From contig CAZQNA010000007.1 in NCBI GenBank assembly GCA_964594835.1, positions 52,058-116,057 of the forward strand: a stretch of DNA of 64,000 nt. The letters run 5' to 3'. The notes beneath the pieces are model-generated. The model did no database searches and was not told the origin of the DNA. It worked only from the letters and a program-made list of their open reading frames with translations. Within the stretch, counting starts at the first letter, position 1. Each line of letters starts with the position of its first letter. The DNA is from an uncultured Nitrososphaerota archaeon. Its GTDB lineage: Archaea > Korarchaeota > Korarchaeia > Korarchaeales > Korarchaeaceae. This document shows, piece by piece, positions 50,175 through 52,313 of this stretch. A program made the translations under genes and the position numbers.

Positions 50175-52313
50175 CTACCTCCTCCCGAGCTTTGCGCTCA
50201 TCGATAGCGCCCTAGCAGAGTTGAACTCCTCAATCGCGGCCAGGAAGTGCCTCATTGCGACTTGATCCACGCCTCTGTTCTCTCTGAGGGCTATGAGCCC
50301 AGCCTCCACGCATATCGCCCTGAGGTCCGCCCCCGTGCAGCCCTCGGTCCTCCTCGCCAGCTCCCTCAGGTCGACGCCGTCGGCCAGAGGCATGCTCCGG
50401 GTGTGTATCTTCAGGATCTCCAGCCTGGCTTCCTCGTCCGGAGGGGGCACGTAGACCAGCCTGTCGAACCTGCCCGGCCTGAGCAGGGCCGGGTCCAGCA
50501 GGTCGGGCCTGTTCGTCGCGGCTATCACGACGACGCCCTTCAGCTCCTCTATGCCGTCCAGCTCCGTGAGGAGCTGAGCTACCACCCTCTCCGTCACCCT
50601 GGAACTCTCAGAGAGCGACCTCCTCGGGGCCAGCGCGTCTATCTCGTCGAAGAATATCACGCACGGAGCGGCCTGCCTGGCCTTCCTGAACACCTCCCTG
50701 ACGGCCTTCTCGCTCTCACCGACCCACTTGCTCAGAAGCTCCGGTCCCTTGACCGAGATGAAGTTGGCCTCGCTCTCTCTGGCTGCCGCCTTGGCTAGGA
50801 GGGTCTTTCCACATCCGGGTGGACCGTAGAGGAGGATCCCCTTGGGCGGAGATATCCCGAGCCTCTCAAAGGTCTCTGGCTTCCTGAGCGGGAGCTCCAC
50901 CATCTCCCTTAGCTTCTGTATGACATCCTTGAGCCCTCCCACGTCGCTCCAGCCGACCTTCGGGGTCTCCGCCGTTATCCCCCTGGCCGCGGAGGGCTCC
51001 ACCCTCTTCAGGGCCCGCTCGAAGTCGCGCATCCTCACCACCACGTTGGGGGGACTGCCGCCCCTCCCGGACTTCTCCTCCCTGAGGGCCCTGCTCACGG
51101 CCTCGGCCAGGGCCTCCCGGCACAGGGCAGCCAGGTCGGCGCCCACGAAGCCCTGGGTCAACCGCGCCACCCTCCCCAGGTTCAGCTCCACCGCCAGGTC
51201 CGCGGACCCGCACCTGCTGCAGACCTTCGCCCGCCCCCCCAGGGTGGCCCCGCAGGCCCTGCACCTGACGACCCTGAACTCGTCGGAGAGGGGCATCTTC
51301 CGGGTCAGCACCCTCAGTATCTCCTCCCTCTCGGCCATCCCCGGCACTCCTATCTCCACCACGAAGTCCAGCCTACCGGCCCTGGTGAGGTATCTCGGCA
51401 CCTTGGAGACGTCGGTGGCCGTCGCCACCACTAGGACCCTATCGCCGTCGGTCAGACCGTCAAGCAGGCTGGACAGGAGGGAGCACACCTCCTCCCCCAG
51501 CCTGTCCACGTCATCCACCAGGATGGCCCTCAGCCCGTCCCCGGCGGCCGCCTCGAACACGGCCCTGAGCTTCTCCTCGACCTCCCGCCCGCCGCTCCTG
51601 ACTAGGTCGCTCCCCCTCACCTCGAAGAAGGAGTCGGCTCCCGCCTCCCCGATCAGGGCCCTGGCCAGGAGCGTCTTGCCGCAGCCCGGGGGTCCGTGTA
51701 TCAGCACGCCCCTGGGCGGGGAGACCCCGAACCTCCCGTAGAGGGACCCATCTCTGAGCGGGGCGACGATCCTCTCGAGCAGGTCCCTCTTCTGCTGCCC
51801 CAGGCCACCCACGTCCTTGAAGGTCACCTGGGGGCGCCCTCCTCCCCCCTCCGCGGAGAACTCCGTCTTGGCTGTGACGACCACAGGCCCCCTGGGGAAC
51901 GTCCTGACGACCTCGGCCTCGACCACCCTGCCGCCGACCGAGACTCGCACCCTGTTTCCCTCCACCAGGGCGTGGCCGCGCAGCCTCCTCCCCAGAGCGT
52001 GCAGGTCCCTCAGCCTAGAGGCCTCCTTCGACAGGACCACCATCACCGCGTCGGAGGGTCTGACGGCCCTCAGCGCGACCAGCTCCCCGGGCCTGACACC
52101 GACGTTGGAGATCGTGATCCTGTCCAGGTCCACGGTCGGGGACCTCGCGGAGCTGTCGAGGAGGACGGCGGCGACCGCCCTGCCCCGCCCCACTATCTCG
52201 ACGTAGTCCCCCGGCCCAACCCCGAGGCGCCTCGCGGTCCCGCAGTCGACCCTGGCGACCCCCCTGCCGGAGAGGTCGGGTGGGAGCAGCCCCACCCTGG
52301 CCGAGACGGGCAA
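50175..52313 (-). CDS. Divergent Cdc48-family AAA+ ATPase (degenerate D1, Zn-ribbon insertion)
   Basis: Cdc48 N domain (GRGVARVD); D1 GPPGCGKT with Walker B ILVDDVD; CRAC..CSRC insert; intact D2. Confidence 0.88.
50458..50576 (-). repeat. 119-bp inverted copy of 44691-44809
   Basis: Identical including all synonymous positions. Confidence 0.9.

Follow-up and report, generated by a model that had tools for sequence, protein, structure and literature searches.

What can a Cdc48-type ATPase do once the first of its two rings carries replacements at catalytic and substrate-contacting positions, and why would such an enzyme be kept beside an intact copy? The question is raised by a gene, here termed X (50175–52313, minus strand), in a window of 64,000 nucleotides from contig CAZQNA010000007.1 of an uncultured Nitrososphaerota archaeon, placed by GTDB in the Korarchaeaceae. 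The same window encodes a canonical Cdc48, termed A (42945–45203, plus strand; 752 residues, C-terminal SIYG, 1191.3 bits on NCBIfam TIGR01243), and a second canonical copy, B, lies on another contig of this genome. Cdc48/p97 is the model two-ring unfoldase, and both the contribution of its D1 ring and the coupling to its N domain are debated. Our preferred reading, to which we give a probability of about 0.6, is that X is a D2-only, proteasome-independent segregase dedicated to the product of the adjoining gene, a 426-residue protein referred to as the partner. Genomes are denoted G000 (the source), G001 and G004 (its genus), G018 (another genus) and G028 (another family of the class).

X begins with a TTG codon and encodes 712 residues with N–D1–D2 architecture, in which Pfam recognizes CDC48_N, CDC48_2, two AAA and two AAA_lid_3 domains. 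The N-terminal double-psi barrel and beta-clam (PF02359, residues 10–84, E = 1.1e-9, 38.8 bits over a cut-off of 35.1; PF02933, residues 105–152, E = 6.3e-8, 32.6 bits over 22.4) are followed by tandem AAA modules with their lids (PF00004 and PF17862, two stretches each). Foldseek aligns X with p97 over about 770 columns (E = 1e-61), and the AlphaFold2 (AF2) model has a mean predicted local distance difference test score (pLDDT) of 82. All domains being on the minus strand, the N domain occupies residues 1–160 (51834–52313) and carries a net charge of +9 (+8 to +11 in all eight family members, against +4 in A); alignments and invariant columns place the large subdomain of D1 at residues 161–344 (51282–51833), an insertion with a putative zinc ribbon at residues 345–376 (51186–51281) and D2 at residues 451–712 (50178–50963).

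The D1 ring departs from the canon at several positions. Its Walker B motif reads ILVDDVD where A has IFIDEID, with D267 and D268 encoded at 51510–51515; pore loop 1 is RSGG (residues 239–242) in place of the KYYG of A; and the alignment to A leaves a gap of 12 residues after Walker B. All three changes had been noticed in an earlier note made from the sequence alone, and are borne out here. To these changes must be added a defect that the note did not mention, the replacement of the sensor-1 asparagine of GATN by threonine (ATAT), as well as two features that it did not credit to D1: Walker A is intact (GPPGCGKT, residues 207–214), and both arginine fingers, R311 and R314, are retained. Translation and alignment agree with the note that D2 is intact (canonical Walker A and B, FFDEID with its DE at 50643–50648, and a KWVG pore loop) and that the C-terminus is AKLGRR, where A ends in the HbYX motif IYG. 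Over 50706–53365, a segment that covers N–D1 of X, the ribbon and the partner, Logan contigs from an independent study (runs X2 and X3) show 0 differences.

These characters are shared by the orthologues and cannot be put down to chance. In a 29-row alignment, all four X rows carry DD, the 12-residue deletion, ATAT or ATAA at sensor 1, a degenerate pore loop 1, the ribbon and a non-HbYX tail, and the remaining 25 Cdc48-type rows carry DE and GATN-type motifs. G207, P208, G210, G212, K213, D267, D268, R311, G313 and R314 are invariant in 8/8 X-family sequences. Across 263 two-ring AAA proteins, the combination of DD and ribbon is confined to the X family. The four genomic orthologues end in AKLGRR, PRGPS, KSIRD and MASRK, and P0009/P0281 in KNP; none of these tails matches the HbYX pattern [LVIMGAPFYW][FY]x. 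Orthologues that kept DE and lacked the ribbon would, according to the earlier note, have pointed to lineage-specific decay; what they keep is DD. By pattern, the first Walker B is also non-DE in three unrelated proteins (P0133, P0149 and P0153).

The family is very small. A search of 41 related genomes, including G000, with the N–D1 part of X as query gave full-length, high-scoring matches in four: G000 itself, G004 (79% identity, E = 4e-203), G018 (44%, E = 1e-94) and G028 (43%, E = 4e-81). The next match is a canonical Cdc48 (E = 1e-51) and ends short of the ribbon. In a collection of 5.8 billion proteins the family comprises X, the G004 protein, the near-identical fragments P0161 and P0162 (58%) and P0009 (45%), after which a gap precedes canonical Cdc48 at E = 1e-91; P0009 likewise stands out in a library of 1.84 billion representatives, where it reaches E = 2e-126 and the next match 1e-94. 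This amounts to about five clusters for X and eight for the partner in 5.8 billion proteins, and no publication describing the X paralogue was found in the literature searched with the terms used.

Between G000 and G004, the ratio of nonsynonymous to synonymous substitution (dN/dS) is 0.19 for X overall, with 0.31 in the N domain, 0.17 in the D1 large subdomain, 0.14 in the D1 lid and 0.125 in D2; the partner gives 0.105 and A 0.051. The pseudogenisation that the earlier note thought dN/dS might reveal is not indicated by a value of 0.19. The protein evolves about four times faster than A (dN 0.111 versus 0.031), its reading frame is intact in four genomes from three genera, and the D1 substitutions are fixed throughout a clade of class rank. 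On this sequence evidence, X is a real, conserved Cdc48-family variant, very rare but not a decaying duplicate.

The insertion, of 31–32 residues, lies between MPLS and LNLGRVA and contains C351-R-A-C354-x10-C365-S-R-C368 (cysteine codons within 51210–51263), the ribbon already noticed in the first reading. AF2 predicts strands at residues 347–351 and 373–377 (pLDDT 82–88). Two CxxC knuckles 9–10 residues apart are found in 6/8 X-family sequences, that is, in three of four lineages; P0161/P0162 lack them and retain every other X character. A HMMER alignment places residues 34–346 of X on residues 53–394 of human p97, with X 346 at p97 394; M340 of X thus corresponds to M388 of p97, and the insertion begins about six residues past p97 N387. 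According to the text available of PMC3318706, in the coplanar state N387 is in contact with R155 of the N domain, a disulfide between the two positions (R155C/N387C) immobilises that domain and inhibits ATPase activity, and both disease mutations and engineered cross-links act at this N–D1 contact. The ribbon would therefore sit on the outer rim, at the N–D1 contact, and not in the pore. This position, its loss in one lineage and a dN/dS of 0.46, the highest of any segment of X (over 32 codons only), lend no support to the dedicated substrate-binding element that had been proposed; we read the ribbon as a putative module for holding the N-domain platform in place or enlarging it. Helical insertions of 40–60 residues occupy the same lid site in other archaeal Cdc48 proteins (L026 of G037, P0018, P0027 and P0061), and since they are unrelated to the ribbon, the site appears to be a recurrent insertion hot spot.

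The partner gene (52330–53610, minus strand; 426 residues) lies upstream of X, separated from it by 16 nt. In G004 there are 17 nt between the two genes, in G028 they overlap by 4 nt, and they are also adjacent in metagenome locus L045. Within a set of 43 genomes of the phylum the partner occurs in three, precisely those in which X has upstream sequence to inspect; the only X without a visible partner is in a 71%-complete genome, where 73 nt separate its start from the end of the contig. Scans for further partner–X loci returned only G004 and G028 from genome contigs, and only L045 and a fragment, L046, from metagenomes. All eight partner clusters in the 5.8-billion-protein collection are unnamed or ‘hypothetical’, two of them labelled as proteins of Thermoproteota/Korarchaeota metagenome-assembled genomes, and sequence searches against Pfam, NCBIfam and PDB sequences gave nothing beyond hints of a winged helix-turn-helix (wHTH). 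The AF2 model, built from nine sequences (pLDDT 79), shows two winged helices (16–82 and 133–195), a long helical hairpin (203–272 and 276–343, 70 + 68 residues, pLDDT above 90), short helices at 354–380 and 394–412, and a disordered acidic end. In every member the core is basic (+7 to +13) and the last 80 residues acidic (−15 to −20), and both winged helices are net acidic in 9/9 members (−1 to −8).

Taken together, these features suggest how X might work. Its D1 ring would be a nucleotide-binding, essentially non-hydrolysing scaffold, and D2 the sole motor. With Walker A and both arginine fingers kept, D1 is probably able to bind ATP and to keep the hexamer assembled; the glutamate-to-aspartate change in Walker B, the loss of the sensor-1 asparagine and of the aromatic pore loop 1, and the deletion make it likely that this ring performs no ATP turnover and has no hold on the substrate, which would instead be pulled by the KWVG loops of D2. 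Conserved under purifying selection, the D1 changes are most naturally read as leaving only one ring active, namely D2. Without an HbYX tail X would not dock on the 20S proteasome, and so would act as a segregase or unfoldase rather than as a protease cap; in keeping with this, the HbYX-less CDC48-C of M. mazei did not stimulate the 20S in vitro, according to the text available of PMC3493965. The basic N domain and the ribbon at the N–D1 contact may form a changed recognition platform, for which the most likely client or adaptor would be the presumably co-transcribed partner with its strongly acidic tail. Since X adjoins this coiled-coil gene wherever the neighbourhood can be inspected, it probably has one dedicated job rather than a part in general protein breakdown. 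The ‘single-active-ring, proteasome-independent’ enzyme of the earlier note thus survives, carried by the conserved D1 changes and the absence of HbYX from the orthologues, but its ‘crippled’ D1 is too strong a term for a ring in which Walker A and the arginine fingers are invariant.

Several points weigh against this reading. A glutamate-to-aspartate change in Walker B need not fully abolish hydrolysis. The statements on conservation rest on eight sequences from four lineages only. X scores 651.4 bits on TIGR01243 (CDC48 family AAA ATPase), below the curated cut-off of 802.65, and is therefore an outlier of that family. The ribbon, having been lost in one lineage, is inessential to the core function. 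Finally, the membrane protein encoded nearby matches DUF4350 with 20.8 bits, below the Pfam cut-off of 30.4.

That protein belongs to a group of five genes that separates A from a THUMP-domain gene; A itself lies outside the group. Three genes are on the plus strand, followed by the partner and X on the minus strand. The first (45444–45803) encodes a wHTH regulator of 119 residues with a weak ArsR/CmtR-type match and orthologues in G004 and G028. The second (45793–47532) encodes a cytosolic protein of 579 residues, in which two DUF4350/GIFT-like domains precede a coiled coil at the C-terminus (PF14258, E = 9e-19, 68.9 bits over a cut-off of 30.4; no transmembrane segment predicted). The third (47525–50131) encodes the 868-residue membrane protein, with a signal-like N-terminus, a transmembrane segment at about 563–592 and a cytoplasmic tail, and has an orthologue in G004. 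G004 has all five genes in this order. In G028, the wHTH gene and an orthologue of the 579-residue protein (46% identity) stand beside partner–X in a divergent arrangement. In G001, of the same genus and 96% complete, A is directly followed by the THUMP gene and exactly these five genes are absent, so that 45204–53900 of the window against 6030–6104 of L050 (G001:C9) is a clean presence/absence site. Shared presence and absence across genomes indicate that the five genes behave as one accessory cassette, and the inclusion of a DUF4350-like membrane protein suggests that X probably works at, or for, a membrane-associated assembly.

The cassette bears no marks of a mobile element in the places searched: there is no tRNA gene in 38000–60000, no repeats inside the borders, no integrase seen at the borders and no 10-mer shared by the borders in direct or inverted orientation. 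Its GC content (0.67–0.70) is close to that of its surroundings, and alignment of the junction with G001 reveals no clear footprint. A defence system was considered and set aside, PADLOC returning only generic AAA matches for X (IetA, TRIP13); for the partner it gave LmuB at E = 0.008, and for the DUF4350 proteins nothing.

How X came to differ so unevenly from A is told by the separate phylogeny of modules that the earlier note had called for. Maximum-likelihood trees were computed for N, D1 and D2, with G028_c79 left out of the D2 tree because it is too short. X is monophyletic in each (support 100/100 for N, 100/100 for D1 and 99/97 for D2) and arose inside the archaeal Cdc48 radiation. The stems of the X clade measure 3.21 substitutions per site in N, 2.73 in D1 and 0.14 in D2; stems this unequal mean a single old duplication, followed by remodelling of N and D1 and by conservation of D2. 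The D2 core of X (residues 513–632) shares 90% protein identity with A of G000, and 50458–50576 of X is, without a mismatch, the reverse complement of 44691–44809 in A, an identical tract of 119 nt. In G004 the tract common to X and A is a different one, of 137 nt; A and B likewise have tracts in common, 138 nt long in G000 and 95 nt long in G004. Identical runs of X and A between genomes reach 54 nt at most, and simulations at 84–87% identity over 540 nt reached a run of 119 in 0/5000 trials. Tracts of 95–138 nt that differ in place from genome to genome look like recurrent short-tract gene conversion among the paralogues. Wholesale conversion as the cause of the D2 similarity was rejected, the X D2 domains of four genomes forming one clade and the tracts being short. 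When the D2 core is analysed as nucleotides, the tree groups sequences by genome, but it is confounded by GC content at third codon positions, which ranges from 0.57 to 0.91.

The exact sequence of each tract copy lies at the resolution limit of the short-read assembly. In three runs the Logan contigs are interrupted exactly at the shared tracts, and with short reads only, a collapse of the repeat by the assembler is a possibility to be kept in mind. Mid-tract, these contigs carry the same alternative letter, at 44750 in runs X1 and X2 and at 50517 in run X3.

The chief alternative concerns what the partner is. Partner and X could be a remodelling system of the ESCRT-III/PspA type, in which the partner is the polymer and X its Vps4-like disassemblase: the tandem winged helices would be an ESCRT-II-like adaptor, the basic hairpin and acidic C-terminal helices would polymerise, the N domain of X would read the acidic tail in place of an MIT domain, and the DUF4350 membrane protein would be site or cargo. 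A basic core with an acidic tail is a hallmark of this superfamily, and the partner has both, together with a confidently modelled hairpin that is followed by two shorter helices. Foldseek matches its tandem winged helices to ESCRT-II EAP30/EAP45 (E = 7e-4 to 2e-3) and the partner to Vipp1 (6zvr; probability 0.99, E = 0.036, 208 columns, rank 41); a VIA structural search gives Z scores of 10.2–10.7 to such proteins (Vipp1 10.7, PspA 10.5, Snf7 10.5); and in a language-model atlas the whole partner is nearest to an archaeal ‘Snf7 family’ cluster (0.77), with PspA/IM30 the only named family for residues 200–426 (0.82). The gene also stands upstream of its ATPase, as in the archaeal ESCRT loci described in the text available of PMC11188069. 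However, the VIA list is headed by long hairpins of unrelated proteins (an HDAC complex at 12.4, a chemoreceptor at 11.7, the dynein stalk at 11.5, and Smc), which makes the fold match look non-specific, and atlas scores under 0.9 are leads only. Neither Snf7 (PF03357) nor PspA_IM30 (PF04012) matches any of the nine partner members at E up to 10, hhalign of the partner against the genome's own PspA returns a probability of 0.3%, and the N-terminal amphipathic helix is missing, winged helices occupying that end. We therefore regard it as possible but doubtful that the partner polymerises and X disassembles it, and offer only tentatively the wider proposal that partner, X and the DUF4350 membrane protein form an unrecognised ESCRT-like remodelling or vesicle/secretion system of Korarchaeia-type archaea. 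If this proposal were true, a hairpin filament with its own ESCRT-II-like winged helices would be disassembled by a two-ring Cdc48 with a locked D1 rather than by Vps4, an arrangement that would resemble the inferred transition state from Cdc48 to Vps4. G000 does encode a canonical PspA/IM30 on contig C4 (101701–102390, L052:1492–2202; 109 bits, above cut-off), and Pfam finds no Snf7 match in this genome.

The other alternatives are much weaker. X and A might form mixed hexamers, as Pex1 and Pex6 do, X tuning A and conversion keeping their D2 domains compatible; the 90% identity of the D2 cores, the 119-nt tract in genes 5 kb apart and the separate 137-nt tract in G004 would suit this. Yet in G018 and G028 the D2 identity between X and the canonical copy falls to 66–72% without long identical tracts, A and B share tracts as well, which makes them a mark of paralogy rather than of partnership, most genomes that bear A have no X, and the tight operon with the partner gene would go unexplained; such hexamers seem improbable. 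That the partner is a plain wHTH transcription factor or DNA-bound protein, with X either unrelated to it or extracting it from DNA, is more improbable still. An HTH_IclR profile does match 8/9 members, weakly (best E = 5e-4), and structural matches to MarR/ArsR/IclR-type proteins (Z about 10) and to ScpB-like tandem winged helices (E about 0.02) exist, but both winged-helix domains are net acidic throughout, the cassette already has a small wHTH regulator, and in different families the gene keeps its place relative to X, either closely spaced or overlapping. Least credible of all is that X is a decaying duplicate close to a pseudogene: the lost catalytic residues of D1 and the faster protein evolution would be expected of one, but not a frame intact in three genera, the low dN/dS overall and in the D1 large subdomain, or substitutions fixed class-wide.

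As a putative D2-only segregase, X can be set beside several known machines. It shares N–D1–D2 architecture with archaeal Cdc48/VAT and p97, and its D2 motifs are near-identical to those of the canonical copy; it differs from them in a D1 with DD, threonine or alanine at sensor 1, no aromatic pore loop 1, a 12-residue deletion and the ribbon, and in having no HbYX tail. In Pex1/Pex6, D1 is inactive and D2 active; these proteins form a separate AAA branch, whereas X arose inside archaeal Cdc48. M. mazei CDC48-C is, like X, an HbYX-less paralogue beside HbYX-bearing copies; the text available of PMC3493965 reports for it neither a degenerate D1 nor a ribbon or fixed partner. NSF, to which the earlier note had likened X, also has one ring that serves as a nucleotide-binding scaffold while the other works, and it too has aspartate at the Walker B glutamate position of its secondary ring (D604): the available portion of PMC2120109 gives 42% activity for D604Q and none for the D1 mutant E329Q. 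The analogy goes only so far, as the non-catalytic ring of NSF is D2, not D1, and NSF belongs to a separate AAA branch.

The X locus also resembles Vps4/CdvC with ESCRT-III, in that an AAA ATPase lies directly downstream of a helical-hairpin protein with a basic core and an acidic tail. X differs in having two rings and no MIT domain, and the partner in its two N-terminal winged helices and its lack of a detectable Snf7/PspA sequence signal. According to the text available of PMC11188069, a PspA-like gene lies next to that of a Vps4-like haloarchaeal ATPase whose N domain is of the Cdc48 type. The text available of PMC5898192 predicts that arCOG01314 (DUF4350) proteins belong to a secretion or membrane-remodelling complex whose ATPase is of the MoxR type and which includes a vWA protein. 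The cassette is like that module in placing a protein with signal peptide, DUF4350-like ectodomain and single transmembrane segment beside an AAA+ ATPase; there is no MoxR or vWA gene between 45204 and 53900, and the cassette uses instead a Cdc48 paralogue and a winged-helix/coiled-coil protein.

Evolution thus appears to have fixed a D1 that is expected to bind but not hydrolyse ATP, with both D1 pore loops apparently lost and D2 left canonical. X would be a small natural model, of thermophile origin, in which to examine threading by D2 alone, with a candidate dedicated client or adaptor supplied by the neighbouring gene; were the partner an ESCRT-III-like polymer, the pair would also bear on the origin of Vps4 from Cdc48. 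In practice, work on the family is limited by its great rarity and by its being known solely from uncultivated archaea.

Some observations on other Cdc48 relatives complete the picture. G000 has three N–D1–D2 genes of Cdc48 type, namely X, A and B, the last with the tail ETYVF. B (contig C4, L003) and its orthologues in G001, G004 and G005 end in E(T/A)YVF, a tail conserved across genera that misfits the strict HbYX motif (Tyr/Phe penultimate). P0061, a relative of 726 residues, diverges after the D2 pore loop KWVGES into an unrelated end, and may contain an intein or be a truncated record. G018_C (L034, G018:C85), a frame of 714 residues, is a very divergent Cdc48-like protein on a terminal branch of about 5 to 10 substitutions per site, and presents the opposite of X, a canonical-looking D1 with a degenerate D2 pore loop (SEGPTRA).

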